This document shows positions 904 through 32,000 of a stretch of 32,000 nt of DNA, one piece after another. The notes beneath the pieces were generated by a model. That model was not told the origin of the DNA. It saw only the letters and a program-made list of their open reading frames with translations, and searched no databases. This stretch comes from Candidatus Pelagibacter sp. HTCC7211 (GTDB lineage Bacteria; Pseudomonadota; Alphaproteobacteria; Pelagibacterales; Pelagibacteraceae), in assembly GCF_000155895.1 (NCBI RefSeq), contig NZ_DS995298.1, positions 570,001-602,000 of the forward strand, read 5' to 3'. The position numbers and the translations under genes were made by a program. The stretch's first letter is position 1; every line of letters starts with the position of its first letter.

Positions 904-1064
904 ACGGGAGACAGAATAGAGCCTTAGTATTAAGGAAAATCATTCGGCCGAAGGAGCAACCACCCAGGAAACTCTCAGGTAAAAAGGACCGTAACATATT
1001 AACTCTGGAAAGAGATTAAATTCTCGCCGAAGGAGCAAAACTCTCAGGCAAATATACAGATGGG
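904..1064 (+). promoter_or_regulatory. Tandem glycine riboswitch (two aptamers) in the gcvT leader
   Basis: Aptamer 1 spans about 904-992: ACGGGAGAC...CGGCCGAAGGAGCAAC...CTCTCAGGTAAAAAGGACCGT, with P1 ACGG/CCGT. Aptamer 2 spans about 1002-1064: CTCTGGAAAGAG...CTCGCCGAAGGAGCAAAACTCTCAGGCAAA...ACAGATGG. Both carry the conserved GGAGA / CCGAAGGAGCAA / CTCAGG blocks of the glycine riboswitch class. The element ends 15 nt before the gcvT ATG. Confidence 0.9.
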
Positions 1065-1078
1065 TAAAACGAGTTAAT

Positions 1079-5432: not shown

Positions 5433-5438
5433 TAATTA

Positions 5439-8621: not shown

Positions 8622-8641
8622 TGAATATATTGGAGTTTTAG

Positions 8642-9190
8642 ATGCGTCATATAAAAATTGTTAACTCTATTTTATTGATAATTTCACTCTTCTTAATTAC
8701 AAGTTGTTCAAACAACAATGCAATGAAACCTGAAGATTTTAAAAACAAAGAACCAAGACTTATAATAGAGGAGTATTTAACAGGAAATGTTAAGGCTTGG
8801 GGTGTTTTACAAAATCGTTCAGGAAAAGTTACCAGACAATTTTCAGCAGATTTGGATGGATCATGGGACGGCAAACAATTAATTTTAAAAGAAAAATTTA
8901 ATTGGGATGATGGCGAAGTTCAAAATAGAGTATGGACTATCACTAAAATTGATGAAAATAATTATGAAGGTACAGCTGGAGATGTTGTTGGTAAAGCAAT
9001 AGGATATTCTTATGGACCAGCATTTAAATTTGAGTATGTTTTATTAGTTCCTGTTAAAGGTAAAGAAATGAAAATTACTTTTGATGATTGGATTTTTAAA
9101 CAAGATGAAAGAGTTGCTATAAATCGAGCGACAATGACTAAATTTGGTTTTAAGGTAGCAGAATTAACAGTCGTATTTGTAAAAGATTAA
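8642..9190 (+). CDS. DUF3833-like lipoprotein
   Basis: It has a signal peptide with the lipobox LFLITSC. The body (...FDDWIFKQDE...) resembles DUF3833, which usually accompanies the oxidase/DUF1365/CFA trio. Confidence 0.6.
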   Translation: MRHIKIVNSILLIISLFLITSCSNNNAMKPEDFKNKEPRLIIEEYLTGNVKAWGVLQNRSGKVTRQFSADLDGSWDGKQLILKEKFNWDDGEVQNRVWTITKIDENNYEGTAGDVVGKAIGYSYGPAFKFEYVLLVPVKGKEMKITFDDWIFKQDERVAINRATMTKFGFKVAELTVVFVKD

Positions 9191-9215
9191 TTTTTTTCTT
9201 TATTGTGTTTTTATA

Positions 9216-9264
9216 GCTAACAATAATCATTCTCAAAAAAAATGTGAGATTGATTATCATTCGC
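9216..9264. promoter_or_regulatory. Two Fur-box-like sites forming an imperfect inverted repeat (alternatively a weak terminator hairpin)
   Basis: 9216-9234 GCTAACAATAATCATTCTC matches the 19-bp GATAATGATAATCATTATC consensus at 15/19. 9246-9264 GAGATTGATTATCATTCGC matches at 14/19 (both hand alignments). AATCATTCTCA (9225-9235) and TGAGATTGATT (9245-9255) can also pair as a hairpin. The region lies 46-94 nt upstream of the ATG at 9310. Confidence 0.35.
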
Positions 9265-9309
9265 CAACAATCTTGTTGTTTCTTCATTAAAAAAAAATAT
9301 TATTAAATA

Positions 9310-9486
9310 ATGGAAACACAAAACTATAGTTGTAAAAAATGTGGACTTACAGTTTCATCTATATGCTCTAAATGTGATAGAGTTGTAGATGTAAAAGTTC
9401 TTGATAACGGTTGTATTGTTCAAAAGACAAAATGTAATGATTGTGCAAATGTACCTGTTATTAAAGATGTTTGTTCACAAAGTTAA
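9310..9486 (+). CDS. Small cysteine-rich protein (58 aa, three CxxC pairs), absent from the supplied ORF track
   Basis: Hand translation gives METQNYSCKKCGLTVSSICSKCDRVVDVKVLDNGCIVQKTKCNDCANVPVIKDVCSQS. It has 8 Cys in 58 residues (C8/C11, C19/C22, C35, C42/C45, C55). It fills an otherwise empty 335-nt gap between 9190 and 9526. Confidence 0.45.
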   Translation: METQNYSCKKCGLTVSSICSKCDRVVDVKVLDNGCIVQKTKCNDCANVPVIKDVCSQS

Positions 9487-9525
9487 AAATAATTAAAAAG
9501 AAGTCTATTTATCCTATAAACAAAA

Positions 9526-9771
9526 ATGGAAGTTACAACAGGTATATTCAAAGCAGCCGAAAATATATTTAGAAATAATAAGGGTTCGATATTAAGAACT
9601 ATTGTTTATACTATTGGTCATTTTGCTATTGCAATAACTGTTCTTATGTTAGTTGCTGATGTATCATTTGTTATAGCTTTAACTGATGCAATTATAGAGC
9701 CTCTAGCTAATTCAATTTGGTATTTCATTCTTGATAAATGGTGGATTAGCAAAAATCTTAATAAAAATTAA
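9526..9771 (+). CDS. Small membrane protein, DUF2061-like
   Basis: 81 aa with two hydrophobic helices. ...ILRTIVYTIGHFAIAITV... and ...EPLANSIWYFILDKWW resemble the DUF2061 pattern as I recall it. Confidence 0.5.
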   Translation: MEVTTGIFKAAENIFRNNKGSILRTIVYTIGHFAIAITVLMLVADVSFVIALTDAIIEPLANSIWYFILDKWWISKNLNKN

Positions 9772-10529
9772 TTTTTTTTTTGATATTTTGTAAGTTTACT
9801 TAGTAAACCAAAATAAATACTACTAGGTAAAAAGCTCAAGAATTTTAAGATTAAAGTGAGTGTCTTAGGAAAATGTATCTCAAAATTGTTTTTATTAATT
9901 AATCCATCATAAATTTTATCTGCAGCATACTCAGAAGTCTTTAAAAATGGCATTTTAAAATCATTTTTATCGGTCATTGGCGTTTTAATAAAACCAGGTG
10001 AAACCAAACAAATACGGACATTAAATCTTTTAAAATCAAAATATAAACTTTCAGCTAAATTATTTAATGCTGACTTTGATGGACCATATCCTGTAGAATT
10101 TGGTAGTCCTCGATAACCTGCTATAGAGGAAACTATTGTAATAATACCATTTTTTTTATCTTTAAAATATTTCTCGACAGCTTTTATTGTATTAATTGTT
10201 CCAAAGAAATTAACTTTGAAAACATCTTCTATTTGTTCAATATCAATATCTTTTTCTTTTTTTGGGTTCCATGTTCCAGTTGAAAAAAAACAAATATCTA
10301 TATTTTCAAATTCATTTTTGATTTGATTGAATACTTCTGTACATTTTATTTGATCAGTTACATCGAGAGGAAAAGAAGATATATTTTCATAATCATCCGA
10401 CAACTCTTTCAAAAGTTCCTCACGTCTAGCAGATACAGCAACATTCCAGCCTTTACTTGCAAATTTAATTGCTAAAGCCTTACCTATACCTGTGCTACCA
10501 CCTGTGATCCAAATAGTTTTTTTATTCAT
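9768..10529 (-). CDS. Short-chain dehydrogenase/reductase (SDR)
   Basis: It has TGGSTGIGKALA (cofactor motif) and the YGPSK (YxxxK) catalytic motif. I start it at MNKKTIWITGG (ATG at 10529). The 22-codon N-terminal extension in the ORF track would overlap the TspO gene and looks non-coding. Confidence 0.85.
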   Translation of the reverse strand: MNKKTIWITGGSTGIGKALAIKFASKGWNVAVSARREELLKELSDDYENISSFPLDVTDQIKCTEVFNQIKNEFENIDICFFSTGTWNPKKEKDIDIEQIEDVFKVNFFGTINTIKAVEKYFKDKKNGIITIVSSIAGYRGLPNSTGYGPSKSALNNLAESLYFDFKRFNVRICLVSPGFIKTPMTDKNDFKMPFLKTSEYAADKIYDGLINKNNFEIHFPKTLTLILKFLSFLPSSIYFGLLSKLTKYQKKN

Positions 10530-11021: not shown

Positions 11022-12125
11022 ATGGATGATGTAGTAATTATTGGTGGTGGAATAATCGGTACAGCTACTGCATACTTTTTATCAAAAGAAGGAAGAAAAG
11101 TTAAAGTAATAGAAAGAGATCCCACATATAAAACCGCTTCATTCCCTTTATCATTAGGTGGATTTAGAAGACAATTTTTTCAAAAAGAAAATATCCTTTT
11201 AGGTAAATTTGCTAGAGAGTTTATCTTTAATATTCCTGAGATTTTAAAAACAGAAAAAAATCCTAATCCTACTGCTAGCATGGTAACTAATGGCTATTTA
11301 TTAATGTTTGGTCCTGAACATGCAGAAGAACAATACAGAGCTCTTGAAAATCATAAAGAGTGTGATGCAGGAACAAAAAATATTAAGGGTTCTGAGTTAT
11401 CAAATGTTTTTCCTTACATTAATAATGATGGGATTGAGACAGCCACTTACACAGACAATCAAAGCGAAGGTTGGATTGATCCATTCATGTTTCATGGTGC
11501 ATTAAAAAGTAAAGCTATTGAATTAGGAACAGAATTTATTAAAGGAGAAGTAAAAAGTATCTCAGAAATTAAAGCAAAAACTATAATATCTGCTGCTGGA
11601 TGCTGGACTAAAAAGTTGCTAGATGACATTCCTGTAGTACCCCAAAAACACACAGTTTTTAGAGTTAAGTGTCCAAAATATATAAAAGAAATGCCATTAA
11701 CTGGTGATTTAACCACCGGAGTTTATTGGAGACCAGAAGGTGGTGAGTATCTTGCAGGTTCTCCACATTCTGTATTTGATGCAGAAGATTTAGAACCAGC
11801 TTGGAATGATTTTGAGGAATTAGTTTGGCCCGCATTAGCTAAAAGAATACCAGCATTTGAAGAATTAAAATTAACTGGTGGTTGGGCAGGCTATTATGAT
11901 TGTAATAAATTAGACAACAATGCGGTTGTTGGCAAACATCCTAAATATGAAAATGTATATATGGCTTCAGGTTTTACAGGAAGAGGTTTAATGCAAGCAC
12001 CTGGAATCGGAAGAGCCTTAACAGAATTAATTACTACTGGCTCATATCAAACGATTGATATAAGTGATTTTTCAGTTGAAAGAGTGCTTGGTAATAGTGC
12101 TAGACCTGAACCTTACGTTTTATAG
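11022..12125 (+). CDS. FAD-dependent oxidoreductase (DAO / glycine-sarcosine oxidase-like family)
   Basis: The N-terminal motif is VVIIGGGIIGTATAYFL...ER and the C-terminal motif is ...ASGFTGRGLMQAPGIGRALTELI.... Both are typical of the DAO family. The substrate cannot be assigned from sequence. Confidence 0.75.
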   Translation: MDDVVIIGGGIIGTATAYFLSKEGRKVKVIERDPTYKTASFPLSLGGFRRQFFQKENILLGKFAREFIFNIPEILKTEKNPNPTASMVTNGYLLMFGPEHAEEQYRALENHKECDAGTKNIKGSELSNVFPYINNDGIETATYTDNQSEGWIDPFMFHGALKSKAIELGTEFIKGEVKSISEIKAKTIISAAGCWTKKLLDDIPVVPQKHTVFRVKCPKYIKEMPLTGDLTTGVYWRPEGGEYLAGSPHSVFDAEDLEPAWNDFEELVWPALAKRIPAFEELKLTGGWAGYYDCNKLDNNAVVGKHPKYENVYMASGFTGRGLMQAPGIGRALTELITTGSYQTIDISDFSVERVLGNSARPEPYVL

Positions 12126-12127
12126 AA

Positions 12128-13573
12128 TTAAGTCCCACAATAAGTTTGATAATTATTATTTGAGGATGGAAATTGGAATTCATCAATATTTTCTAAATTA
12201 TCGTACGGGTTTTCCAAAACGGACAGTAACTTATTGAAATTATCTAAATTATTTTCATTTGCAGCTAATAATGCTTCTTCAACTTTATGATTTCTTGGAA
12301 TTACAGTTGGATTAGTATTTTTCATAAGTTTTAAAGATTTTTCTATAGAGCCATTATTAATTAAAACTCTGTTTTTCCAGTTTTTAATCCAAGTTAAAAA
12401 TTTTTGATCTTTATAGATTTCATTACTAATAGAGTCTTTGTTCATTAAGTAACAAAAAGTATTTGTATAATCTGCTTTATTTTGTTCCATCCAATTGAGC
12501 AAATCTTCAATTATCTTTTTATCTCTTTGATCTTCTCCAAAAAAACCAAGTTTATCTCTCATCATGTTTAACCATTTTTCTTCATATATATTTTGAAAAT
12601 TATTAATAGTTTCGCTTGCTATTTTAATTGCTTCATCTTCATCTTTATCGATCACTGGTATGAGGCACTCAGCAAATCTAGCCAAATTCCATTTAGTTAT
12701 TGGTGGTTGGTTTGAAAATGAATATCTTCCAAATCTATCTATTGAACTAAATACTGTTTTTGGATCATAATGATCCATAAATGCACAAGGACCATAATCA
12801 ATAGTTTCTCCTGAGATAGCCATATTGTCTGTATTCATTACACCATGAATAAAACCAACTCGCATCCAGTTAACAACTAGCTGACATTGTTTTTCCATAA
12901 CAAGATTTAAAAGGTCTAATGCTTTATTATCAGATGTTTGAATTTCTGGATAGTGTCTATCAATTGTATAATTAACTAGAGTGTTTAAATCATCTATATT
13001 TTGTTTAGCAGCGATATATTGAAAAGTTCCTACACGAATATGGCTAGATGCTACACGTGTTAAAATCGCTCCAGGTAATAAATTTTCTCTAACAACTTTT
13101 TCTCCAGTACTAATTACAGCTAAACTTCTTGTAGTCGGAATATTTAATGCATGTATAGCCTCACTAACAATATATTCTCTAAGCATTGGTCCTAATACTG
13201 CACGTCCGTCACCACTTCTAGAGAATGATGTTTTTCCTGACCCTTTAAATTGGATATCAAAACGCTTGTTTTTATTGACCAAATGTTCACCTAATAGGAC
13301 AGCTCTTCCATCTCCCAACATAGTAAAATGACCAAACTGATGACCTGCATAAGCTTGGGCAATTGTGGAACTTCCTTCAGGTAAAACATTACCTGAAAAA
13401 ATTTTTGCTAATTCTTTTTTTGATATATTAGAAAAATCTAAATTTAATTCTTTAGCTAGTTTTTCATTTAATATTATTAATTCAGGATCTTTAACAGGCG
13501 TTGGTTTGATTACTTCTTTAAAATTATCAGAAAGTTTTGAATAGGTGTTATCAAAATGCCAACCAATGGTCAT
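12128..13573 (-). CDS. selO: Protein adenylyltransferase SelO (YdiU/UPF0061)
   Basis: 481 aa. Blocks ...AQAYAGHQFGHFTMLGDGRAVLLGE..., ...GDGRAVLGPMLREYIVSEAIHALNIPTTRSLAV... and ...HGVMNTDNMAISGETIDYGPCAFMD... align with E. coli YdiU as I remember it. Confidence 0.85.
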   Translation of the reverse strand: MTIGWHFDNTYSKLSDNFKEVIKPTPVKDPELIILNEKLAKELNLDFSNISKKELAKIFSGNVLPEGSSTIAQAYAGHQFGHFTMLGDGRAVLLGEHLVNKNKRFDIQFKGSGKTSFSRSGDGRAVLGPMLREYIVSEAIHALNIPTTRSLAVISTGEKVVRENLLPGAILTRVASSHIRVGTFQYIAAKQNIDDLNTLVNYTIDRHYPEIQTSDNKALDLLNLVMEKQCQLVVNWMRVGFIHGVMNTDNMAISGETIDYGPCAFMDHYDPKTVFSSIDRFGRYSFSNQPPITKWNLARFAECLIPVIDKDEDEAIKIASETINNFQNIYEEKWLNMMRDKLGFFGEDQRDKKIIEDLLNWMEQNKADYTNTFCYLMNKDSISNEIYKDQKFLTWIKNWKNRVLINNGSIEKSLKLMKNTNPTVIPRNHKVEEALLAANENNLDNFNKLLSVLENPYDNLENIDEFQFPSSNNNYQTYCGT

Positions 13574-18019: not shown

Positions 18020-18859
18020 TTAATCCACATTAACTTTTTTGTTATTTGTGTAAATATTAAAACTATCTCTCTTTACGAAACCAATAAGGGTCATGTCAAA
18101 CTTATTCGCTAGGTCTATAGCAAGACTAGTTGGCGCACCAACTCCTATCATTATGCCAATATTAGTCATTAATACTTTTTGGACCAATTCAAAATTTAAT
18201 CTGCCTGAACAGGTTATAAATTGATTTTTTGGCTCTAGTTTTCCATTAATTAATATACTACCCACAAGTTTATCTAGCGCATTATGTCTTCCGACATCCT
18301 CTTTAAGATCAATAAGTTGACCATTACTACTAAATAGACCGCTAGCATGGATTCCTCCAGTTTTACTAAATTCTGACTGATTATTTTTTAAAATATTTGG
18401 CGACTCAATAATGACCTCTTTTGAAATTTGTGGTTCAACAGAGCTTGTTTTATCTTTTTTAATTATTTCTAAAGCATCTAATGATGATTTACCACATACA
18501 CCACAAGATGAATTTGTTAAAAAATCTCTTTTAATTTTAGAAATATTAACGTTCTGAGAATTATTAAGTGTTGCTAAAATTTTGTTTTGAATATTATATT
18601 GACCTACTTTTTTTCCATAACTTTCTATGGAGTCAATATCTTTAATATCTTGAACTATTTGTTCGTTAAATAGAAATCCTCTTACTAGATTTTCATCATC
18701 ACCTGGCGTTCTCATTGTAATAGAAAGATTTTGTGTAATCCAGTTATTTTCATCTTTATATTTTAACGAAATTTCTAAAGGCTCTTCAATTGAAATTAAG
18801 TCATCAATTGACTCAAATTTCTTTGAGTTAAATTTTAAAACTTTATATTTTGAATTCAT
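18020..18859 (-). CDS. fdhD: Formate dehydrogenase accessory sulfurtransferase FdhD
   Basis: 279 aa. It has the conserved ...SSCGVCGKSS... cysteine motif and ...VGRHNALDKLVG..., both typical of FdhD. Confidence 0.9.
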   Translation of the reverse strand: MNSKYKVLKFNSKKFESIDDLISIEEPLEISLKYKDENNWITQNLSITMRTPGDDENLVRGFLFNEQIVQDIKDIDSIESYGKKVGQYNIQNKILATLNNSQNVNISKIKRDFLTNSSCGVCGKSSLDALEIIKKDKTSSVEPQISKEVIIESPNILKNNQSEFSKTGGIHASGLFSSNGQLIDLKEDVGRHNALDKLVGSILINGKLEPKNQFITCSGRLNFELVQKVLMTNIGIMIGVGAPTSLAIDLANKFDMTLIGFVKRDSFNIYTNNKKVNVD

Positions 18860-18862
18860 AAA

Positions 18863-19339
18863 TTATTTTAAAGGATAATTTTTTTTTAGTATGAATTTAT
18901 TAATTAAAATTGCTAATAATAAAATTATGATACAACCAAAAATTATTGGACTTATTAAAAAATCATAAGAAGCACTTCCAATAATTACTATTATTGGATT
19001 TCCACCTGCAGGGGGATGTACCACATTAAGTAAAATCATAAAAAATATTCCAGCACCAACAGCTAAAGCAATATTAATATAAATTGGCAGAGGAATAAAA
19101 TTAACAAATATAACACCAACCAAAGCTGTGATTAGATGTCCAAAAAAAACATTTTTAGGCTGAGCAAAAGGACTTTCAGGAAAACCAAATAATAAAACCA
19201 TCGATGAACCAAATGATCCTGCTAAAAAATAACCTAGAGTACTTTTGTAAGTTAATACAGTTAATACACCGATAGTGAATGCAGAGAAAAAACCAGCAAT
19301 TAATGCTTTTTGTAATGTAGGTTTTGTAATTTTTATCAT
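18863..19339 (-). CDS. HPP-family integral membrane protein
   Basis: 158 aa with four hydrophobic helices. It contains the eponymous ...VVHPPAGGNP... motif. Confidence 0.75.
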   Translation of the reverse strand: MIKITKPTLQKALIAGFFSAFTIGVLTVLTYKSTLGYFLAGSFGSSMVLLFGFPESPFAQPKNVFFGHLITALVGVIFVNFIPLPIYINIALAVGAGIFFMILLNVVHPPAGGNPIIVIIGSASYDFLISPIIFGCIIILLLAILINKFILKKNYPLK

Positions 19340-19738
19340 TTAAATTTTTAAAGCTTTTAAAATAGTTTTAAAAGGTAGCAATAAGCATTCTTTACGAGCA
19401 AGATTTTTTTTATCTAAAATTTCCATAAAATCTTTCCAATGTTTTTCAATATTAATTTTAACATCATCAAATAACTTTTCGCTATTAGCAATAAAAGTCT
19501 TTATTTCGTCAATTTTTTGGTTTTTTATTTTTCTAGAAAGTAAGCTCACAGAAGCTTGGCAATAAACACAAGATTTACATTGATATCCCATATCTTTAAT
19601 CACATCGTTTTTAACAATTAAGCTGATTTCCATTTCATCTCCACATAGAGGATTTTTATGTTTAGACTTATGAGTGAAGTCCTCAATAATCTTATTATTT
19701 TCAGTGTGCGATGCTATCTCTAAAATTCTAAGGTCCAT
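19340..19738 (-). CDS. IscU/SufU (NifU N-terminal)-like Fe-S scaffold protein
   Basis: 132 aa. It has ...KNPLCGDEMEISL... plus downstream ...CKSCVYCQAS..., resembling the three-Cys scaffold pattern of the IscU/SufU family. The stop abuts the HPP ATG. Confidence 0.6.
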   Translation of the reverse strand: MDLRILEIASHTENNKIIEDFTHKSKHKNPLCGDEMEISLIVKNDVIKDMGYQCKSCVYCQASVSLLSRKIKNQKIDEIKTFIANSEKLFDDVKINIEKHWKDFMEILDKKNLARKECLLLPFKTILKALKI

Positions 19739-19781
19739 TATATTTCTTTAATTCAAATTTTAATGTTTTATATTTTGGTGG

Positions 19782-20390
19782 ATGGATCATAGCAATATTT
19801 TAGGTGTTGTACTAGCAGGCGGAAAGTCCCAAAGGTTTGGTGAAGATAAATGCCAAGTTAAATTAGGAGATAAATTGTTGATAGATTATATTTTATCAGA
19901 AATTATTGATGAATTTAAAGAGGTATTATTAATTTCAAATAATAAAATTAAATATAATAATTCAAATAAAATTTCATTAGTTGAAGATACAAAAAGGGGA
20001 TTAGGTCCTTTAGGAGGTATTTTAACTGCTATGAAATGGATCAGGCAAAATAATAAAAATTATAAATGGATTTCAACTTTTCCATCGGATACGCCTTTTT
20101 TTAAAAAAAAAATTTTAAATAATTTTCTAGAAGAAATTAAAGATTATGAAGGTAAACTTTTTTTTATTAACTCTAATGATACTAGACATAATATATTTGG
20201 ACTTTGGTCTATTGATTTATTAGATAGATTAGAAAAGGACTTGGACAATGGTGAAAGAAAAGTTGAAATGTGGGCAAATAAAATTGGTGTAAAGTCAATT
20301 AATATGAAGTTTGAAAACAAAGATCCTTTCTTCAATATTAATACCAAAGAAGATTTAATAAAAGCTAAAGAGTATTTAAAAAATGATTAG
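19782..20390 (+). CDS. mobA: Molybdenum cofactor guanylyltransferase
   Basis: The N-terminus is GVVLAGGKSQRFG.DK, with ...GPLGGILTA... and ...PSDTPF..., all typical of MobA. It overlaps moeA by 8 nt. Confidence 0.85.
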   Translation: MDHSNILGVVLAGGKSQRFGEDKCQVKLGDKLLIDYILSEIIDEFKEVLLISNNKIKYNNSNKISLVEDTKRGLGPLGGILTAMKWIRQNNKNYKWISTFPSDTPFFKKKILNNFLEEIKDYEGKLFFINSNDTRHNIFGLWSIDLLDRLEKDLDNGERKVEMWANKIGVKSINMKFENKDPFFNINTKEDLIKAKEYLKND

Positions 20391-21636
20391 TTATCAAAAC
20401 TCAAAAAAAATTTTGTCTAAAGCAATTATTAAAATTCAAGATGAAAATATTAAAAGTATGAATTCATTAAATAGAGTTTTATCTGAAAATATTTACTCAA
20501 AAATGAATTATCCTTCAGGAAACAATGCAGCTTTTGATGGTTACGCAATAAATTCTAAAGACACTAAACAAATTAAAAAAAAATTACCTCAACAATTCAA
20601 AATTATTGGTTCTGTTGCAGCTGGCGCCAAACCATTTAAAAAAAGAATAGAGAAATTTAATACTGTTGAGATCATGACAGGAGGAATTATTCCAAAAGGC
20701 TTTGATACTATTATTCCAATCGAACAGATTAAGTTTCATCCAAACAAAAACAAAAAAAAATACATAATAATTGATAAAAAAGTTAAGAAATATGATCATG
20801 TTAGATTTGCAGGATCTGATTATAAAAAAAATGAATTAGTAATAAAAAAAAATACTATAATTCAACCAAATCACATACTCGCTTTTAAAACTTTAGGTAT
20901 TAAGAACATCAAAGTTAAAAAAAAAATAAATATATTATTTTTTTCAACAGGAAATGAAATTTCTAATAAAGATAATATCCCTGATTGGAAAGTGAGAAAT
21001 TCAAATAGTCAATATATTAGAAATTTAGATAAAAACTTTTTATTTAATTTTATAGATGGTGGGATTTTAAAGGATCACCATCAAAAACTATATAAAACCA
21101 AGATCAATAGAATGTTAAGGTCTAATATAAATATAATTATTACTTCAGGAGCTGTTTCAGCAGGTAAATTTGACTATATACCAAGTGTAGTAAGGTCTTT
21201 TCAACTATCTAATTATTTTAAAAGTGTATCTATACGTCCTGGCAAACCTATATTGTTTGCAAAGATAAAAAACAACCAAAAAGCAATTTTTGGACTACCA
21301 GGTAATCCGATGTCATCAGCTGCTTGCTTTAGATTTTTTGTGTACCCTTATTTTGAAAAAATTTTAGGACTTAGTGCAGAAAAGCCGATTAAGGCAGTTT
21401 TAAAAAATGATTTTTTGAAGAAAAAAAATTTTACTAGATTTGCTAAAAGTAAATTAAACACAACTAAAGATGGAAAAATTGAAGTCGAAATTTTAAAAGG
21501 CCAGGAGTCTTTTAGAATTAAATCATTTGTAAAATCAAATATTTGGGCAATATTACCATCTGGTAAATCAAAATTTAAGAAAGGTGAAATTGTAGATTGC
21601 TACTTACCAAATCAATCAAATCAAGCCTTAATATAG
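20383..21636 (+). CDS. moeA: Molybdopterin molybdotransferase
   Basis: 417 aa. It has ...FDGYAI..., ...ITSGAVSAGKFDYIP... and ...GLPGNPMSSAACF..., which are MoeA family blocks. Confidence 0.85.
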   Translation: MISYQNSKKILSKAIIKIQDENIKSMNSLNRVLSENIYSKMNYPSGNNAAFDGYAINSKDTKQIKKKLPQQFKIIGSVAAGAKPFKKRIEKFNTVEIMTGGIIPKGFDTIIPIEQIKFHPNKNKKKYIIIDKKVKKYDHVRFAGSDYKKNELVIKKNTIIQPNHILAFKTLGIKNIKVKKKINILFFSTGNEISNKDNIPDWKVRNSNSQYIRNLDKNFLFNFIDGGILKDHHQKLYKTKINRMLRSNINIIITSGAVSAGKFDYIPSVVRSFQLSNYFKSVSIRPGKPILFAKIKNNQKAIFGLPGNPMSSAACFRFFVYPYFEKILGLSAEKPIKAVLKNDFLKKKNFTRFAKSKLNTTKDGKIEVEILKGQESFRIKSFVKSNIWAILPSGKSKFKKGEIVDCYLPNQSNQALI

Positions 21637-24936: not shown

Positions 24937-25989
24937 ATGGCAAAAATTAAAACAAAAAGAGAAAGAGTTAAATTTGCATCAGATAATGTTGCGGGTGCTT
25001 GTCCAGAAGTATTAGATGCAATTATTAAAGCTAATGAAGGAGACAGCACTCCTTATGGAAACGACCAAATTTCAACAGAACTTCAAGATAAATTTTCTCA
25101 AATTTTTGAAAAAGAAGTTATAGTTTTTCCTACAGCTTCAGGAACAGCTGCTAATGCTTTAGCTTTATCAACGATGACACCATCATTTGGTAATATTTAT
25201 TGTCATAAAATGTCCCATATTAACACTGATGAATGTGGCGCTCCAGAATTCTACACTGGTGGTGGAAAACTTGTTACTCTCCAGGGTGTTAAAGGAAAAA
25301 TAACTGCTGAAGAACTAGATGAAGCGATTACTGGAAAAGGAATTGTACACCATACTCAACCCTCGTCTGTTAGCATTACACAAGTTTGTGAAACAGGAGA
25401 AGTTTATCAATTAGATGAAATAAAAAAAATATCAGATGTTGCTCATAATCATAATTTAAATATGCATATGGATGGCGCTAGATTTGCAAATGCATTAGTG
25501 TCACTTGATGTAACGCCAGCCGAGATGACTTGGAAGTCAGGTATTGATGTATTATCTTTTGGTGCAACCAAAAATGGTTGTTTAGCTGCAGAAGCTATAA
25601 TTTTCTTTAAAAAAGATTTAGTTGGCAATGTTACTTTTTTAATGAAAAGAGCAGGGCATTTGTTATCAAAAATGCGTTTTGTATCTGCTCAATTAGATGC
25701 TTATATAACTAATGATGTTTGGATTAAAAATGCAAGACACGCAAATAAAATGGGAAAAAAACTCAGTGATGGATTGATTAGTCACCCTGATATTAATTTA
25801 TCTTTTCCAACCGAAGCTAATGAGGTTTTTGCAACATTTCCAAGAAATAAAATTGAACATTTAAATTCCGAGGGCTATACAATAAATGAAGACGAGTGGG
25901 ACGGTAAAGCAGTGAGATTAGTTGCAGCTTGGAATACTAAGGATAATGATGTTGATGAGTTTTTAAATATACTCAATAAGACTAACTAG
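24937..25989 (+). CDS. ltaE: Low-specificity L-threonine aldolase (PLP-dependent)
   Basis: 350 aa. It has ...FASDNVAGACPEVLDAI..., ...FPTASGTAANALAL... and the PLP-lysine context ...SFGATKNG..., all typical of threonine aldolases. Confidence 0.85.
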   Translation: MAKIKTKRERVKFASDNVAGACPEVLDAIIKANEGDSTPYGNDQISTELQDKFSQIFEKEVIVFPTASGTAANALALSTMTPSFGNIYCHKMSHINTDECGAPEFYTGGGKLVTLQGVKGKITAEELDEAITGKGIVHHTQPSSVSITQVCETGEVYQLDEIKKISDVAHNHNLNMHMDGARFANALVSLDVTPAEMTWKSGIDVLSFGATKNGCLAAEAIIFFKKDLVGNVTFLMKRAGHLLSKMRFVSAQLDAYITNDVWIKNARHANKMGKKLSDGLISHPDINLSFPTEANEVFATFPRNKIEHLNSEGYTINEDEWDGKAVRLVAAWNTKDNDVDEFLNILNKTN

Positions 25990-26209
25990 GGTTTTGTTTT
26001 AGATATTCAATATAATTTACCACCTCATTAAATTTTTCATCAGGAATATCTTTGTAACTTGCATTAAAATTATCTTTCACACATATCGCTACATGGGCGT
26101 AGGAGTTTCTTCCTTTAGGATGATTTGGGTGGTCGGGCAGCTGACCGCGCAAATAATCGCCAGCTTCCTGAATAATTTTCCAGAGTTTATTTGCGTTTTC
26201 TTTATTCAA
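25982..26209 (-). CDS. Small hypothetical protein (75 aa, TTG start) whose 5' end is duplicated at 28374-28433
   Basis: The open frame begins MNKENANKLWKIIQEAGDYLRGQLPDHPNHPKG.... The C-terminal half (...SYAHVAICVKDNFNASYKDIPDEKFNEVVNYIEYL) vaguely recalls phage ORF6C-type domains, which is unverified. The start is TTG, whereas the duplicated stub has ATG. The 3' end overlaps the ltaE stop by 8 nt (convergent). Confidence 0.5.
   Translation of the reverse strand: MNKENANKLWKIIQEAGDYLRGQLPDHPNHPKGRNSYAHVAICVKDNFNASYKDIPDEKFNEVVNYIEYLKQNPS
26150..26209. repeat. Left copy of a 60-bp imperfect direct repeat (5' end of the 75-aa gene)
   Basis: A hand alignment of 26150-26209 with 28374-28433 gives 52/60 identical positions with no gaps. 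The first 21 nt (CAAATAATCGCCAGCTTCCTG) are identical. Confidence 0.85.
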
Positions 26210-26220
26210 ACTACTTAAAT

Positions 26221-26259
26221 CCTTGTTTTATCTCTTCTGTGTCGAGTTAGTGTCGAGTT
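26221..26259 (-). promoter_or_regulatory. Roughly 40-bp element containing tandem GTGTCGAGTT (11-nt period), copy 1, upstream of the 75-aa gene
   Basis: GTGTCGAGTT occurs at 26239-26248 and again at 26250-26259. The wider block CCTTGTTTTATCTCTTCTGTGTCGAGTTAGTGTCGAGTT recurs at 28218-28257, with about 32/39 identical and one 1-nt indel. Read on the minus strand it gives TCGACA, an 18-nt spacer, then GATAAA, which is a plausible -35/-10 arrangement. Confidence 0.45.
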
Positions 26260-26303
26260 ATCCTATAAAATCCTACAATCATTATCTTAAAAGTTTTTTC
26301 ACA

Positions 26304-26684
26304 TCAGTATTTTTGCTTTGATGGAATTACACCTCTAACACCACCTCTTGGGTCATCTATATCTCCTTTACGCCTTGGTATTAAATGTATATGAAGATGC
26401 ATTACAGTTTGACCTGCAGTTTCTCCCTGGTTTATTCCTATATTAAATCCAGTAATGCTATTATCTTTTCCTATTAAACTGTCTTTTTGAAATTTTATTA
26501 TATTATTTAATTGAATAATATCTTTATCTCTAAGATCAAAATATGTTTTGTTATGTTCATTTAAGATAATTAATGTGTGATCCGTAGTTACAGGATATGC
26601 ATCTCTTATCACATAAAAAATATCATCTTCGTAAATTATATTTAATTTTTCTTTGTTACAGAATATACAATTATTATTTTCCAT
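26304..26684 (-). CDS. HIT (histidine triad) family nucleotide hydrolase/transferase
   Basis: 126 aa. It has the N-terminal CIFC and the histidine triad MHLHIHLIPR (H96/H98/H100). The C-terminal tail is DIDDPRGGVRGVIPSK. The start overlaps the upstream HNH gene by 11 nt. Confidence 0.85.
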   Translation of the reverse strand: MENNNCIFCNKEKLNIIYEDDIFYVIRDAYPVTTDHTLIILNEHNKTYFDLRDKDIIQLNNIIKFQKDSLIGKDNSITGFNIGINQGETAGQTVMHLHIHLIPRRKGDIDDPRGGVRGVIPSKQKY

Positions 26685-27681
26685 TATTTAATACTGTTAA
26701 AAATCTTTTAAAAAATAAGTCTTTTTCCCTGTTATAATCTTTATCTCCCATCCAATAATTATTACCATAAACTTGCTTTGCATTCTCGTAATGATTTAAT
26801 AAAGTTTTTCTTCTTTGATTTTTAGTCGAGCCTAGAGATGCAACTATCTTTCCTTTCCAAGGATGGCTACTTCCAATGATATTTTCATTCCTGTTGAATA
26901 ACTTTTCAATATAATGTGGTCCAACTAATGCTTCTAGTTTATTTTCGTTACACATCCTATGACTAACAGTTAAATTCCATTCTTCATCATGCTGCAATAA
27001 ATCTCTAGGTATTAAATGTTCTACAGGAGGGGTTTCATTTTCAAGTAATTCTAAACCACATAGAAAGCATATATTTGATTGATATGCTCTTAAAAAATCT
27101 CTTTGATCTGAAAGATCTTTCCTGTCATGACCGTTTGTTAGATATATATTTCGAATATCATTTTCTAATTTAAAATTGTCTCTCTTGATTAAGTAAGCAC
27201 CCTCAAGCATACTATGTTTCATTTCTGCTTCTTTTTCTAGACTAATCATTTGGTTTTTTGGAATTTCAAAAAAATTATCTTTCAATATTATTTTTTTACC
27301 AAATTGATATTCATAAAAATAATTCTTAAGTGTTTCTTTATCCTTACCAAATGACTGAAATCTTGGAATTACATCATTAAAGCCATCTTTACCTATTTCA
27401 CTTATTGCTTGATCATAGTTAATTCTATTATTTTTTAATTTATAAAACACTGTCTCTTGGACAGATCTTCTAAAAGGATTGCTTTGTTGAGGTCTTGGAT
27501 CATTTGTCAATCTATCAAAATAAATTTTAAAATATTGTTCTGATAAATCTTGCCAGGAAATAGTATGTTGATCATTGTTATAAAAATGATTTAAGGTTTT
27601 AAACAGAGCAATTTTATGAGTACCTGCATTTAATCCATATAATAATATGGCTTGAGCCCAGTCATAGTTTGTAAATTTCAT
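26674..27681 (-). CDS. HNH (His-Me finger) nuclease-domain protein with an uncharacterised N-terminal region of about 200 aa
   Basis: 335 aa. Residues 205-248 read CFLCGLELLENETPPVEHLIPRDLLQHDEEWNLTVSHRMCNENK, which fits the pattern CxxC ... EHxxP ... WN ... CNxxK (nt 26938-27069). I recognise no motif in residues 1-200 or 250-335. Confidence 0.75.
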   Translation of the reverse strand: MKFTNYDWAQAILLYGLNAGTHKIALFKTLNHFYNNDQHTISWQDLSEQYFKIYFDRLTNDPRPQQSNPFRRSVQETVFYKLKNNRINYDQAISEIGKDGFNDVIPRFQSFGKDKETLKNYFYEYQFGKKIILKDNFFEIPKNQMISLEKEAEMKHSMLEGAYLIKRDNFKLENDIRNIYLTNGHDRKDLSDQRDFLRAYQSNICFLCGLELLENETPPVEHLIPRDLLQHDEEWNLTVSHRMCNENKLEALVGPHYIEKLFNRNENIIGSSHPWKGKIVASLGSTKNQRRKTLLNHYENAKQVYGNNYWMGDKDYNREKDLFFKRFLTVLNNGK

Positions 27682-27683
27682 TA

Positions 27684-27857
27684 TTAATGAAGTACTCTAT
27701 CAAGTACCTCAATTTTAATATGCTGATAATCATCCTGGATATCAAATTCTATTGCCATGTCATCATCAGGATCTAACGTTTTACGAACTAAATTAACGTA
27801 TTGATCAATTCTTTTATAAGAAATTTTGCCTCTAAATATTTTTTCAAATCTTTTCAC
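27684..27857 (-). CDS. Possible 57-aa ORF (GTG start) wedged between the DUF1330 and HNH genes
   Basis: Hand translation gives VKRFEKIFRGKISYKRIDQYVNLVRKTLDPDDDMAIEFDIQDDYQHIKIEVLDRVLH. It starts 6 nt after the DUF1330 stop, and its TAA ends 2 nt before the HNH ATG. It is not in the ORF track, and I recognise no homology. Confidence 0.3.
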   Translation of the reverse strand: MKRFEKIFRGKISYKRIDQYVNLVRKTLDPDDDMAIEFDIQDDYQHIKIEVLDRVLH

Positions 27858-27863
27858 TGAGTT

Positions 27864-28151
27864 TTAATTCCCCTCAACTAAAACTAGATGAGCTTTGGCC
27901 GCTAATTCTCTAACCGCTTTAGCCGCTTGATATTTTTCTGACTCATAGAATTTACGAGCAGCATCAATGCTTTCAAATTCAATTAATATAACAGTACCTA
28001 AATTTTCACCTTCTCTTACGTCAGGACTGGGTTCACGAACAAGAACTTTGCCACCGTGCTCTCCAATAGTTGGTCCAGACATTTGTTTAAACTTTTCCAT
28101 ACCTTCTTTATCGTGTACTTTAAGATGTGCTATCAAATATCCTTTGCTCAT
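27864..28151 (-). CDS. DUF1330 family protein
   Basis: 95 aa. ...GYLIAHLKVHDKEGMEKFKQ...HGGKVLVRE...VILIEFESIDAARKFYESEKYQAAKAVRE...LVLVEG follows the DUF1330 consensus as I recall it. It is preceded by AAGGAG 8 nt upstream of the ATG. The gene looks G+C-richer than its neighbours by eye. Confidence 0.75.
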   Translation of the reverse strand: MSKGYLIAHLKVHDKEGMEKFKQMSGPTIGEHGGKVLVREPSPDVREGENLGTVILIEFESIDAARKFYESEKYQAAKAVRELAAKAHLVLVEGN

Positions 28152-28217
28152 AATTTTCTCCTTTATGTTTTAATGTAACAAATCCTAAACCATGAGTCTA
28201 TTTGCTTTAAAATAGCT

Positions 28218-28257
28218 GTTTGATTTATCTTTTTTGTGTCGAGTGTGTGATCGAGTT
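28218..28257 (-). promoter_or_regulatory. Roughly 40-bp GTGTCGAGT-repeat element, copy 2, upstream of the DUF1330-HNH-HIT cassette
   Basis: GTTTGATTTATCTTTTTTGTGTCGAGTGTGTGATCGAGTT is homologous to 26221-26259 in the same orientation. It lies 66 nt upstream of the DUF1330 ATG. Confidence 0.45.
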
Positions 28258-28364
28258 TTTTAATTAAATTGATGAGTCTTTAAGAGATTTATTTCAAACT
28301 AACTTTTTAATATCCGCATTTGTACTGTAGAATAATGCAGCTTAATGCAGGATAGATTGAACCT

Positions 28365-28433
28365 CTAATCCCCCAAATAATCGCCAGCTTCCTGTATCAT
28401 TTTCCACAGTTTACTTGCGTCCTCTTTGTTCAT
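28365..28433 (-). pseudogene. 22-codon stub duplicating the 5' end of the 75-aa gene (ATG start, premature TAG)
   Basis: The reverse complement reads ATG AAC AAA GAG GAC GCA AGT AAA CTG TGG AAA ATG ATA CAG GAA GCT GGC GAT TAT TTG GGG GAT TAG, giving MNKEDASKLWKMIQEAGDYLGD*. This compares with MNKENANKLWKIIQEAGDYLRG... for the full gene. Homology stops abruptly at 28373/28374. Confidence 0.65.
28374..28433. repeat. Right copy of the 60-bp imperfect direct repeat
   Basis: See 26150-26209. Identity is 52/60 in the same orientation. Confidence 0.85.
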
Positions 28434-28466
28434 CACTTATTTAATTTTATAGTTTATAAATTTTAT

Positions 28467-30198: not shown

Positions 30199-31074
30199 TT
30201 ATTGTGACAATCGCTTAGTATTTTTAAGCTTCAAAAACGAGTGGATGGCTATCGTCAGTATTATAACAATCCCACCTTGAATTGTCTCGATACTTGGTTG
30301 CTCATTGATAACTAGCCAGACCCAAAAAGGACCTATGATTGTTTCTAGTAAAAAGAATAGGTTTACCTCTTCAGCTGGTATAAATCTTGGTGCAATTGTT
30401 ACTAAAACAAATGGGATAGCTACACACATCACACACATTAAAGGAACAAATATTAAGTCAGTACCAACAAGAGCAAAAGTATCTACGAAAAAGAAAGCAA
30501 AAATTGCTACACATAGTTTTCCAATTACAGCAGATGGAACAAGATCTCTATTTTTGGCATATCTAGCGATGACAGCGTTACAAGCAAGACCAAAAGCGGT
30601 AATTATACCAAATAAATCACCATAAAAATTGCCCATTTCAATAGAATCGTGGAAGATATAGGTGACTGCAATTAGAGTAATAATAATAGCAATCCAAGTT
30701 TTACTGTCAGGCACTTCTTTTAAAAATATACTGCCTAATATAGCTGATAACATTGGTGCCATTGCAATCATTACTAACGTATTAGCAACATTCGTATTTT
30801 GAATAGAAATTATAAAAGTAATATTACAAATAGAAAAACTAATAACGTAAAAAATACCAGGATAACCTATGTTTATTAATGCTTTAAAGAGATTATTTTT
30901 ATAAAAAAATATAAGTCCAACAAGAACAACCACAAAAGGAATTGCACCTCTATAAAAAAGCATTCCCCAAGTTTCGATATTAGAAAGTCTAATTAAAATT
31001 GAGTCTGGAGTAATCAACATTACAGCAATAAATGCCAAAAGAGACCCTTTTTTTTGGTTTGAAAGTTTATTCAT
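30199..31074 (-). CDS. EamA/DMT-family transporter
   Basis: 291 aa with ten hydrophobic helices in a two-halves EamA architecture. Confidence 0.75.
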   Translation of the reverse strand: MNKLSNQKKGSLLAFIAVMLITPDSILIRLSNIETWGMLFYRGAIPFVVVLVGLIFFYKNNLFKALINIGYPGIFYVISFSICNITFIISIQNTNVANTLVMIAMAPMLSAILGSIFLKEVPDSKTWIAIIITLIAVTYIFHDSIEMGNFYGDLFGIITAFGLACNAVIARYAKNRDLVPSAVIGKLCVAIFAFFFVDTFALVGTDLIFVPLMCVMCVAIPFVLVTIAPRFIPAEEVNLFFLLETIIGPFWVWLVINEQPSIETIQGGIVIILTIAIHSFLKLKNTKRLSQ

Positions 31075-31083
31075 TGATAAAAT

Positions 31084-31950
31084 CTATTTTAAAGACATCA
31101 CAATATTAGCATTATTTTTAAAAACCTTAATATATCCAAGATTATAAAGATATTTTACTAAATCATATTTCCATAAATGATTAGAGGCATGTTCTAAAAT
31201 TATATTTTTGGGGTATAGATTTTTTTTACAATTTTTTAAAAATGATAAGAGAACTCTATCTTCATATCCTTCAATATCTATCTTAAGATTTGTGATATAA
31301 TTTAATTTTTCTTCTTTAACTATATCTATTAACTTTCTACAGTTAACTACAATATTTTTTTTACTTTTTTTTTTAATTATTCGTCCATTTGCCAAACCTG
31401 GAGTAAAATCAAAGTAAATTTTTTTATTTCTATCACCTAGTGCACAATTTTTAATTTTTACAATTGAAAAAATTTTAGAGATTTTCTTTTTTAATAATTT
31501 CAAGTTTCTTTTTAATCTTAAGTTATTAATTGGATTTGCATCAATCGCGATAATCTTGACTTTATTATTATTACTATAAAGTGACGCAACATTAAGTGTG
31601 AAGAGACCCATATTTGAACCAATATCAATAAAGACACTATTGTTTAAAGATTTACTTTTAATAAAATTTATTTCCTTATTTTCATTTCTTCCAAAGTAAA
31701 CTTTAATTCCGGTTAACTTATCGTTGTAAAAGTGAAGAGGTATTTTGTTAACTTTACAGACAAATCTAGAATTATCAATATTACCAATTCCAATAAAAAA
31801 ATTTATAAAATCTATTATTATTTTTCTAATTTTGCCTCTCCCTAAAAATGTTTTTTGACCCAAAAAAAGGATTATTTTAATTATAAAAATTTTAGTTTCA
31901 GAAAGCTGTATTAATTCAGTTGATTTCTTCATAGTTTTAAATCTTTCCAA
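31084..31950 (-). CDS. FkbM-family SAM-dependent methyltransferase
   Basis: ...FIDIGSNMGLFTLNVA... is the SAM-binding motif. ...ALGD... and ...IDIEGYE... are typical of the FkbM family. The true start may be the internal MKKST at 31932. Confidence 0.65.
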   Translation of the reverse strand: MERFKTMKKSTELIQLSETKIFIIKIILFLGQKTFLGRGKIRKIIIDFINFFIGIGNIDNSRFVCKVNKIPLHFYNDKLTGIKVYFGRNENKEINFIKSKSLNNSVFIDIGSNMGLFTLNVASLYSNNNKVKIIAIDANPINNLRLKRNLKLLKKKISKIFSIVKIKNCALGDRNKKIYFDFTPGLANGRIIKKKSKKNIVVNCRKLIDIVKEEKLNYITNLKIDIEGYEDRVLLSFLKNCKKNLYPKNIILEHASNHLWKYDLVKYLYNLGYIKVFKNNANIVMSLK

Positions 31951-32000
31951 AAGATCCTTGCAAGATTTATACCTGATAAATCAAATAAAGTTTTTAACCC

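Follow-up and report, generated by a model that had tools for sequence, protein, structure and literature searches.

A mobile HNH nuclease-HIT pair in Candidatus Pelagibacter sp. HTCC7211 as a candidate anti-phage module with an interchangeable enzyme partner

Within the 32,000-nucleotide stretch of Candidatus Pelagibacter sp. HTCC7211 DNA analysed here (contig NZ_DS995298.1, positions 570,001 to 602,000; hereafter the window), four closely packed minus-strand open reading frames (ORFs) encode a DUF1330 protein, a 57-aa protein, a 335-aa protein with an HNH nuclease core and a 126-aa HIT protein, and the question raised by this locus is whether these genes form a defence module. The original prediction had read them as one four-gene cassette and a possible nucleotide- or modification-coupled nuclease system. 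Of that reading, the HNH-HIT pairing, its mobility and its defence context stand, and the four-gene unit does not; absent from it was the finding that the HIT protein is one of three interchangeable small enzymes encoded beside the nuclease gene. On comparative sequence evidence we consider it probable (about 60%) that the module is a compact mobile defence unit, in which a Cas9-type HNH effector is joined to an interchangeable nucleotide-processing accessory.

Pairing of the HNH gene with one of three small enzymes

An exhaustive profile search recovered 2,393 cluster representatives of the 335-aa protein family at E≤1e-3 and 609 at E≤1e-10, full-length members being mostly 330-350 aa long. 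The gene neighbourhood was analysed in 65 loci from one-genome-per-species contigs, which span Bacteroidota, Gamma- and Alphaproteobacteria, Planctomycetota, Bacillota, Chloroflexota, Nitrospinota, Ignavibacteria, Legionella and Thaumarchaeota and in which 56 full-length members were counted. Three kinds of gene, and no others, recur next to the HNH gene, in almost every case as its immediate neighbour (+1 or -1) and frequently in overlap with it. Such an enzyme partner is directly adjacent in 48 of the 56 members: a HIT protein in 28 (26 by clustering, plus loci L022 and L055), a class-I S-adenosylmethionine (SAM) methyltransferase in 12 and a MazG-like nucleoside triphosphate (NTP) pyrophosphohydrolase in eight. 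Two further members have a partner within three genes, and six (~11%) have none.

The HIT partners are ~121-129 aa long (Pfam E=6e-24) and the methyltransferases ~192 aa (Methyltransf_25/23/11, E=1e-15; their TehB/BioC/UbiG-like matches are weak and all below cut-offs), while the MazG-like partners (~105 aa) are PRA-PH-like, all-alpha enzymes with weak Pfam matches, the one on the Bacillus thuringiensis plasmid pKK1 being annotated 'nucleoside triphosphate pyrophosphohydrolase'. Catalytic or cofactor motifs are kept in all three, namely HxHxH plus tail in the HIT proteins, LDAGCGsGRD in the methyltransferases and EExxE...EELADxxE in the MazG-like enzymes. In a neighbour-joining tree of the HNH proteins the partner type tracks clades and switches at least five times. 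Pairing with HIT was observed in Bacteroidota, Alpha- and Gammaproteobacteria, Planctomycetota, Nitrospinota, Ignavibacteria and Chloroflexota, and plasmid members of ~25% identity are paired too, with a MazG-like enzyme (pKK1), a methyltransferase (Acinetobacter, Roseomonas) or a HIT protein (Persicobacter). Because it recurs in dozens of unrelated genomes, the pairing lies far beyond chance. Recurrence of a HIT gene beside homologues of the 335-aa protein had been set beforehand as a test, and such neighbours, adjacent and often overlapping, were found in several phyla.

The order of the HNH gene and its partner is variable, and solo HNH copies occur in Nostoc, Calothrix and Exiguobacterium plasmids. 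No fusion between the two proteins was found among the family members; the sole long outlier (P0161, 520 aa) carries a low-complexity N-terminal extension that is probably a mis-called start. A conserved third gene was likewise not found, the 156-aa upstream gene of Robiginitalea, the small upstream ORFs and DUF1330 all being unconserved. Judged by these neighbourhoods, the conserved core is a unit of two genes, HNH plus one of three interchangeable small enzymes. In Bacteroidota a second pair stands beside HNH-HIT, consisting of a 113-aa MazG-like protein and a 562-aa GIY-YIG/ResIII/SLFN-group-3 helicase protein (Table 1), and in pKK1 the MazG-like and HNH genes are immediately followed by the gene of a 'DNA/RNA helicase domain' protein, which suggests that small NTP pyrophosphohydrolases associate more widely with nuclease or helicase effectors. 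In Bacillota and Chloroflexota a 74-80-aa protein, by eye an XRE-family helix-turn-helix regulator, is encoded directly upstream of HNH (Table 1); these proteins resemble the controller proteins of restriction-modification and defence operons.

Domains and catalytic residues of the two proteins

The HNH assignment of the 335-aa protein is sound despite a sub-threshold Pfam score (HNH_4, E=1.1e-3, 19.4 bits against a cut-off of 22), because PF13395/PF01844 are found in its homologues, its key residues are invariant, a profile of 69 family sequences finds PDB domains of the Cas9/IscB HNH type (E=2e-9 to 1e-7; HNH-domain proteins 2.4e-9, Cas9 1.3e-7), and a Foldseek search with its full-length AlphaFold2 (AF2) model (predicted local distance difference test, pLDDT, 90.1) has Cas9 HNH domains as top matches (probability 1.0). 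By these comparisons the protein is a member of the HNH, or His-Me finger, superfamily, which is characterised by a ββα-metal core bearing a catalytic His, a structural Asn and a metal-ligand Asn/His, and in many members by a CxxC...C(H) zinc site too. The core comprises about residues 190-270, with a zinc/catalytic set of C205, C208, E221-H222, N236, H241, C244, N245 and K248. All the cysteine, histidine, asparagine and lysine residues of this set show no variation among 17 homologues that reach down to 42% identity, and the cysteines, histidines and asparagines are nearly invariant in the 69-sequence alignment; position 221 is occupied by E in Pelagibacter-clade sequences and by D in all others. 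The conservation of the catalytic residues named in the original prediction was thereby confirmed. A conserved helical region follows the core towards the C-terminus (R264-N-E-N-I, W275, R290).

The full-length fold search was dominated by the HNH domain, and residues 1-172 were therefore modelled separately (AF2, pLDDT 92.9, predicted template modelling score 0.88). The predicted domain is helical; it opens with a winged-helix-like part and also contains a small beta-hairpin and, ending near E160, a long connecting helix. Its conserved motifs are G16-x-N18-x4-K23, P64-Q65 and F101-N-D-V104-x3-F108, and the most conserved residues (G16, N18, K23, Q65, D103/V104, F108, E160) are polar and loop-borne, a pattern compatible with either a pocket or a DNA surface. 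The ~200 N-terminal residues had been described as matching nothing recognised, and our searches were blank as well: the N-terminal ~170 residues contain no Pfam family in any of 33 members, comparison with the PDB gave nothing significant (best E=0.33, with weak winged-helix-like ORC/MarR matches at a template modelling score of ~0.3), and no match was obtained among predicted viral structures.

The HIT superfamily is defined by the motif H-φ-H-φ-H-φ-φ, in which the middle histidine is the nucleophile. In the 126-aa protein this motif reads HLHIHLIPR (H96-L-H98-I-H100-L-I) and is followed by the C-terminal tail DPRGGVRGVIP, both as first described, and an HxHxH...GD..nPRGG.R pattern of motif plus tail is conserved in 27 HNH-linked HIT proteins. 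With PF01230 at 64 bits (cut-off 21.5) and Hint/Fhit-type proteins as closest solved relatives (E=4.7e-16), the protein is, by motif and profile, a HIT superfamily member. The 100% identical database entry is named 'diadenosine tetraphosphate (Ap4A) hydrolase'. We rejected a sub-assignment as Ap4A hydrolase or ATP adenylyltransferase, as the NCBIfam scores are far under the cut-offs (38 bits against 290 for ATP adenylyltransferase); the NCBIfam HinT model gave 69 bits against a cut-off of 130.

A mobile cassette in a strain-variable hotspot

The four minus-strand ORFs have the spacing originally reported, with a gap of 6 nt between DUF1330 and the 57-aa ORF (27858-27863), a gap of 2 nt between the 57-aa ORF and HNH (27682-27683) and an 11-nt overlap between the HNH stop and the HIT start (26674-26684). 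The DUF1330 gene is, however, a resident syntenic gene and no part of a four-gene cassette: Pelagibacter genomes without the cassette (L073 and L075-L078) encode an identical DUF1330 protein at the syntenic position, the gene is not beside HNH in any other locus, and it lies outside the block shared with a second cassette-bearing genome described below. Hence the HNH/HIT core is retained from the predicted cassette, DUF1330 is removed, and the 57-aa ORF belongs to the Pelagibacter version only. The same comparison shows that the pair is no syntenic core feature: strains that share the DUF1330 protein exactly do not have it.

Relative to the empty site of L073, in which a 75-aa ORF directly follows DUF1330, the insert amounts to 1,575 bp (Table 1). 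The Pelagibacteraceae single-amplified genome AG-905-M05 (L002) shares only window positions 26308-27856, at 80% nucleotide identity, within unrelated 10-kb flanks, where by eye the cassette neighbours glycosyltransferase-like and pilin-like genes; the common block opens at the start codon of the 57-aa ORF. The mobile unit is the 57-aa ORF plus HNH and HIT, beginning at the GTG of the 57-aa ORF and without a promoter region of its own. Read-through transcription is probably supplied by the DUF1330 gene, and the 6-nt 'coupling' gap results from insertion of the cassette immediately after the DUF1330 stop codon. Promoter and terminator scans performed no better than on shuffled sequence, and an Rfam search returned nothing near the cassette. 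The GC fraction drops to 0.27-0.28 between 26501 and 28000, compared with 0.33-0.35 on the side at 24-26 kb.

Homologues of the 57-aa ORF form 157 clusters; the 120 listed all come from marine metagenomes, and almost every one is exactly 57 aa long, with 75-96% identity. The protein has no Pfam, NCBIfam or convincing PADLOC match, and no counterpart was found upstream of HNH in other phyla. Its conservation in length and sequence marks it as a real gene, which is confined to marine Pelagibacter-type cassettes.

The hotspot is bordered by DUF1330 on one side and by the 75-aa ORF and a Beta_elim_lyase gene, whose 3' ends overlap by 8 nt, on the other. Besides adjoining DUF1330 at the empty site of L073, the 75-aa ORF lies beyond other cargo in L075, L077 and L078; its C-terminus has faint DUF2281/VapB antitoxin similarity (E=0.02-0.1). 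The L075 cargo (5426-9782) consists of a 306-aa protein with no assigned function and two large DUF4379 treble-clef zinc-finger proteins with multiple zinc fingers and DUF559/MTES_1575 (Vsr-like restriction-endonuclease) regions, and may represent further nuclease-type conflict genes; in L077 the site holds the gene of an alginate-lyase-like protein together with DUF3303, and in L078 DUF3303 alone. A metagenomic contig with an identical HNH protein (L072) is 99% identical to window 26095-28198 and then diverges, with a Methyltransf_11 gene and pyruvate phosphate dikinase upstream of DUF1330 (L072 3798-4683 against window 28199-28466) in place of thioredoxin and a major facilitator superfamily gene, and L073 and L075 have YajQ and a 2-hydroxyacid dehydrogenase there; the upstream side of DUF1330 is thus variable too.

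A short repeat element marks the cassette junctions. It consists of two copies of TATAGGAT, a tandem pair of 11-nt units (two copies of ACTCGACAC in the element directly 3' of the cassette) and GAGATAAAAC, after which come the first ~22 codons of the 75-aa ORF. The 11-nt units are of ACTNGAnnnn type, and in the alignment of ten copies their variable bases co-vary within each copy (for example two times ACTCGACAC, two times ACTAGATAC or two times ACTTGTATC). The motif has three matches in the window against 0.09 expected. In L075 one copy lies between each cargo gene, and at the unrelated site occupied in L002 the HIT gene is followed by the element's first half. The 5' 68 nt of the 75-aa ORF are duplicated at 28365-28432, upstream of DUF1330 and on the minus strand, as a truncated ORF encoding MNKEDASKLWKMIQEAGDYLGD and a stop (truncated duplicate, 28365-28437); equivalent duplicates in other strains end at a conserved TAG after ~23 codons, and only the last copy of an array runs on into the full 75-aa gene. 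This boundary element could be the site at which cassettes are exchanged by recombination or else a portable promoter/operator, and directly 3' of the HTCC7211 cassette it may be the promoter of the next gene. An integron cassette, likewise promoter-less, was considered and rejected, as the 3' element is made of direct 11-nt tandem units and not of an inverted-repeat attC, and no IntI-like ORF is nearby; no integrase-like ORF was found among the Pfam-annotated genes ~10 kb on each side of the cassette (~21 kb in total).

Table 1. Positions of the features discussed, in the window or in the locus named
Feature	Locus	Position	Strand	Remarks
DUF1330 gene	Window	27864-28151	-	95 aa; Pfam DUF1330 E=6e-29
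57-aa ORF	Window	27684-27857	-	GTG start; first gene of cassette
HNH protein	Window	26674-27681	-	335 aa; ORF listing
HNH protein, residues 1-172	Window	27166-27681	-	Uncharacterised N-terminal domain; AF2 model and fold searches
HNH protein, residues 173-335	Window	26677-27165	-	Cas9-type HNH core and C-terminal helical region
HIT protein	Window	26304-26684	-	126 aa; Pfam HIT E=1.7e-17
Mobile cassette	Window	26282-27856	-	57-aa ORF, HNH and HIT, to ~22 nt past HIT stop
Short repeat element	Window	26223-26290	-	Directly 3' of cassette; tandem 11-nt unit pair
75-aa ORF	Window	25982-26209	-	Resident gene on far hotspot edge, outside module
Element copies	Window	26141-26290, 28220-28257, 28365-28437
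Element copies	L075	3926-3993, 4715-4777, 6390-6474, 9863-9954
Element copies	L078	367-493, 1546-1671
Element copy	L002	11379-11431
MazG-like + GIY-YIG/ResIII/SLFN pair	L001/L009	11461-13484
MazG-like + GIY-YIG/ResIII/SLFN pair	L012	4417-6438
MazG-like + GIY-YIG/ResIII/SLFN pair	L016	11364-13385
MazG-like with nuclease/helicase genes	L080	7290-9203
Upstream XRE-type protein	L043	9722-9949
Upstream XRE-type protein	L048	9735-9977
Upstream XRE-type protein	L049	9712-9936

Defence genes and mobile elements around the homologues

Many known defence genes, together with integrases, lie near homologues of the HNH gene, as seen in raw counts over 256 neighbouring proteins. Among the first 141, located within four genes at 30 loci, Pfam identified ResIII (seven), Phage_integrase (five), PLDc_2 (five), SWI2_SNF2 (four) and SLFN helicase (three), and PADLOC identified type I, IIG and IV restriction, PbeA, HerA, SIR2, DRT and PDC candidates, many of the PADLOC matches having E<1e-100. 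The other 115, analysed second, add GmrSD (two), NERD (two), SNase (two), integrase (two), BREX BrxL/PglZ, HEC-06 and another DRT. In Robiginitalea the pair lies between an EcoRII/Vsr/Dcm system with a DUF6339 gene and the MazG-like plus GIY-YIG/ResIII/SLFN-helicase pair, in pKK1 the MazG-like and HNH genes lie just downstream of a TerB-N/ATPase/DEAD-helicase trio that we take to be Shango-like, and the Exiguobacterium plasmid copy adjoins a type I restriction-modification system.

The family is patchily distributed across phyla, incongruently with taxonomy, and occurs in plasmid and integrase contexts. No match was found in 50,697 phage genomes, and 2.9 million viral contigs of IMG/VR yielded one, L083 (UViG_3300037045_000218), whose HNH gene (7989-8996) has no partner and lies between tail/baseplate genes and a holin/amidase. 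Downstream (11203-13290) is a 695-aa protein recognised by eye as DUF262 (GmrSD-like) from its IPDYQRGYAWQ motif, and the locus looks like a prophage-borne defence spot.

Comparison with known systems

The statement that no named defence system matches held in all searches: scans of five window proteins with PADLOC v2, NCBIfam (June 2026) and Pfam gave no named system, and a literature search on HNH+HIT/MazG defence pairs found no description. The 2017 classification of His-Me fingers contains a Group 23 of unannotated HNH proteins that lack a Pfam match and are encoded beside MazG genes (PMC5714182), which may be a partial earlier sighting of the MazG-linked branch, the equivalence being unconfirmed. 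A 2025 survey of SAR11 defence, which reported 51 putative systems in 46 of 321 genomes, leaves the HNH-HIT pair unmentioned.

The module would work most like the type IV (modification-dependent) HNH restriction enzymes McrA, ScoMcrA (SBD-SRA-HNH) and TagI (SRA-HNH), with which its architecture is compatible: these too combine an N-terminal domain with a C-terminal zinc HNH, have no cognate DNA methyltransferase, occur in defence islands and exist as solo copies. Foldseek similarity to EcoKMcrA is weak (E=0.2), the N-terminal domain matches none of the type IV readers (SRA, SBD/winged helix-turn-helix, NEco) by sequence or fold, the HNH core is nearer to the Cas9/IscB type, and type IV enzymes, unlike the present family, are not known to have a HIT protein, a MazG-like enzyme or a small-molecule methyltransferase as coupled partner. 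With Cas9 and IscB the 335-aa protein shares the D/E-H...N...N catalytic arrangement and the CxxC...C zinc site (residues ~190-270), but it lacks RuvC, a guide-RNA locus and a CRISPR array; the repeat scan of the window found no repeat arrays, and no RNA family matched near the cassette.

Septu and the PtuAB of retron I-A also have an HNH effector in a small operon, and PtuAB is regulated by a nucleotide (ATP). The HNH protein resembles PtuB over ~60 residues (PADLOC, E=2e-4; solved PtuB chains, E=0.03), but its N-terminal architecture is different and its partner is a nucleotide-acting enzyme rather than an ATPase; Septu was rejected, as the cassette contains no PtuA ABC/SMC-type ATPase ORF and 55 loci show no conserved ATPase neighbour. 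A HIT protein, ThsC, is encoded in the type II Thoeris operons of PADLOC, whose authors hypothesise that it makes or degrades a nucleotide signal (PMC8565338). The window HIT protein matches the ThsC2 model (E=2e-9) at the level of generic HIT similarity, its partner is an HNH nuclease, and Thoeris II was rejected as well: the window has neither ThsA (SIR2/SLOG) nor ThsB (TIR), and TIR and SIR2 are not conserved neighbours. Type I and II restriction-modification were set aside because the window cassette has no methyltransferase, and the 190-aa methyltransferase partner of relatives is a small-molecule-type class I enzyme, interchangeable with hydrolases. The PUA-Calcineurin-CE/HAD systems, which are triggered by an infection-derived nucleotide, m6-dAMP, and include MazG-like proteins among their swappable enzymes and HNH as an alternative effector (10.64898/2026.01.15.699771), offer a conceptual parallel only, their PUA-like, calcineurin and HAD domains not being present here.

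Proposed function and alternative explanations

From the pairing across many phyla, often beside known anti-phage genes, we infer that the family is probably an unnamed anti-phage module. In the mechanism that we propose, the 335-aa HNH protein would be the effector, cutting DNA, its ~170-residue N-terminal domain would be the recognition or sensor module, and the translationally coupled HIT protein would be an accessory acting on a nucleotide and not on DNA. In HTCC7211 the cassette, which includes the lineage-specific 57-aa gene, is promoter-less and immediately follows the resident DUF1330 gene, in a hotspot that varies between strains. That a HIT, MazG-like or SAM methyltransferase enzyme occupies the same slot suggests a shared task, which would be to convert or inactivate one nucleotide-type small molecule linked to nuclease activity. 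Tentatively, the partner might set a threshold or sanitise, removing a nuclease-activating nucleotide or a harmful product of foreign-DNA degradation; alternatively, it is conceivable, by analogy with the m6-dAMP-triggered system (10.64898/2026.01.15.699771), that it generates a nucleoside monophosphate (NMP)-type cue. Doubtful at present is the broader proposal that the family embodies a new compact form of innate immunity, a nuclease with a novel ligand- or DNA-sensing domain gated by a nucleotide cue whose level or identity is set by a plug-in enzyme; such small-molecule-tuned restriction would be distinct from restriction-modification, type IV restriction, Septu and cyclic-nucleotide signalling, and would be among the few active anti-phage systems that circulate as a promoter-less cassette in SAR11 populations.

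Several observations weigh against a defence unit of this kind. About 11% of the members, several plasmid copies and the prophage copy have no partner, so that the partner is dispensable and a strict safety-catch role is weakened, and it is not obvious that a methyltransferase is equivalent in function to two hydrolases. The neighbour tallies are raw counts without a genomic baseline, and the second 115 neighbours also hold many ordinary metabolic genes. The HTCC7211 cassette itself is flanked by metabolic and housekeeping genes, with no defence neighbours within ~21 kb, and the PADLOC similarity is limited to weak PtuB and generic HIT (ThsC) matches. The N-terminal domain is without a detectable relative, and 'sensor' is a guess.

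Other functions would account for part of the evidence. In a dual-effector defence, which we regard as unlikely, the nuclease would degrade phage DNA and the partner would, in parallel, deplete or corrupt the pool of nucleotides on which phage replication depends, with no regulatory link between them. HIT enzymes cleave NMP-X conjugates or dinucleoside polyphosphates, not bulk NTPs, and a small SAM methyltransferase would presumably be unable to deplete a pool, which makes a poor fit for all three partners, and constitutive depletion would be costly in a streamlined cell; on the other side, the partners keep their catalytic motifs, solo HNH genes indicate that the nuclease can stand alone, and MazG-like enzymes have been proposed as nucleotide-targeting defence effectors (10.64898/2026.01.15.699771; DefensePredictor paper). 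Less probable again is a toxin-antitoxin or addiction system that stabilises islands and plasmids, with the HNH protein as toxin, a partner that counteracts it by binding or by destroying an activator, and phage defence at most as a by-product. The tight two-gene architecture with overlapping frames, the variable gene order, the plasmid occurrence and the integrase neighbours agree with it, but catalytically intact solo HNH genes in several genomes, plasmids and a prophage argue against an obligate antitoxin, since an unguarded toxin should not persist, and the partners are conserved enzymes rather than labile binders.

It is improbable that the cassette is a selfish homing-endonuclease element, whose HNH protein would cut empty sites, the cassette then being copied in by repair, with HIT and the 57-aa gene as passengers. 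Passengers would not be exchanged time and again, in hundreds of lineages, for functionally related enzymes whose active sites are conserved, the insertion sites are unrelated across genomes, and in the searches above the family had no match among the phage genomes and a single one among the viral contigs, where homing endonucleases abound. What such an element would explain are the very tight boundaries without an integrase or a promoter of its own and the occupation of an intergenic hotspot and of a second locus in another strain, HNH being also a classic homing-endonuclease fold. The least probable explanation is a housekeeping pair for DNA repair or nucleotide metabolism, for example an aprataxin-like HIT protein with a nuclease acting on damaged DNA ends: HIT enzymes do include aprataxin and Ap4A hydrolases, the latter being the NCBI name of the HTCC7211 protein, and the window flanks are metabolic, but the pair is missing in sister strains with an identical flanking gene, is distributed patchily and incongruently with taxonomy, occurs in plasmid, integrase and defence-island contexts, and lies in a region of low GC.

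If the cassette is indeed a compact mobile defence unit, the annotation of its HIT protein as 'Ap4A hydrolase' would be corrected, and, hypothetically, a previously undescribed form of nuclease-based defence would be at hand. Its presence in the cultivable strain HTCC7211 makes the mobile HNH-HIT cassette a testable active-immunity candidate for the SAR11 lineage. The family is sizeable, extends over bacteria and archaea and carries an uncharacterised 170-residue domain, and the rule of one nucleotide-processing partner out of three points to a shared nucleotide substrate or signal.

Other features of the window

Away from the cassette, the window contains low-GC stretches at 5501-8000, 18501-21000 and 31001-32000 (0.23-0.26, against ~0.31-0.35 elsewhere) and a glycine riboswitch aptamer (995-1069, plus strand; Rfam RF00504, 46 bits, E=1e-6) that precedes the ORF at 1079-2182.

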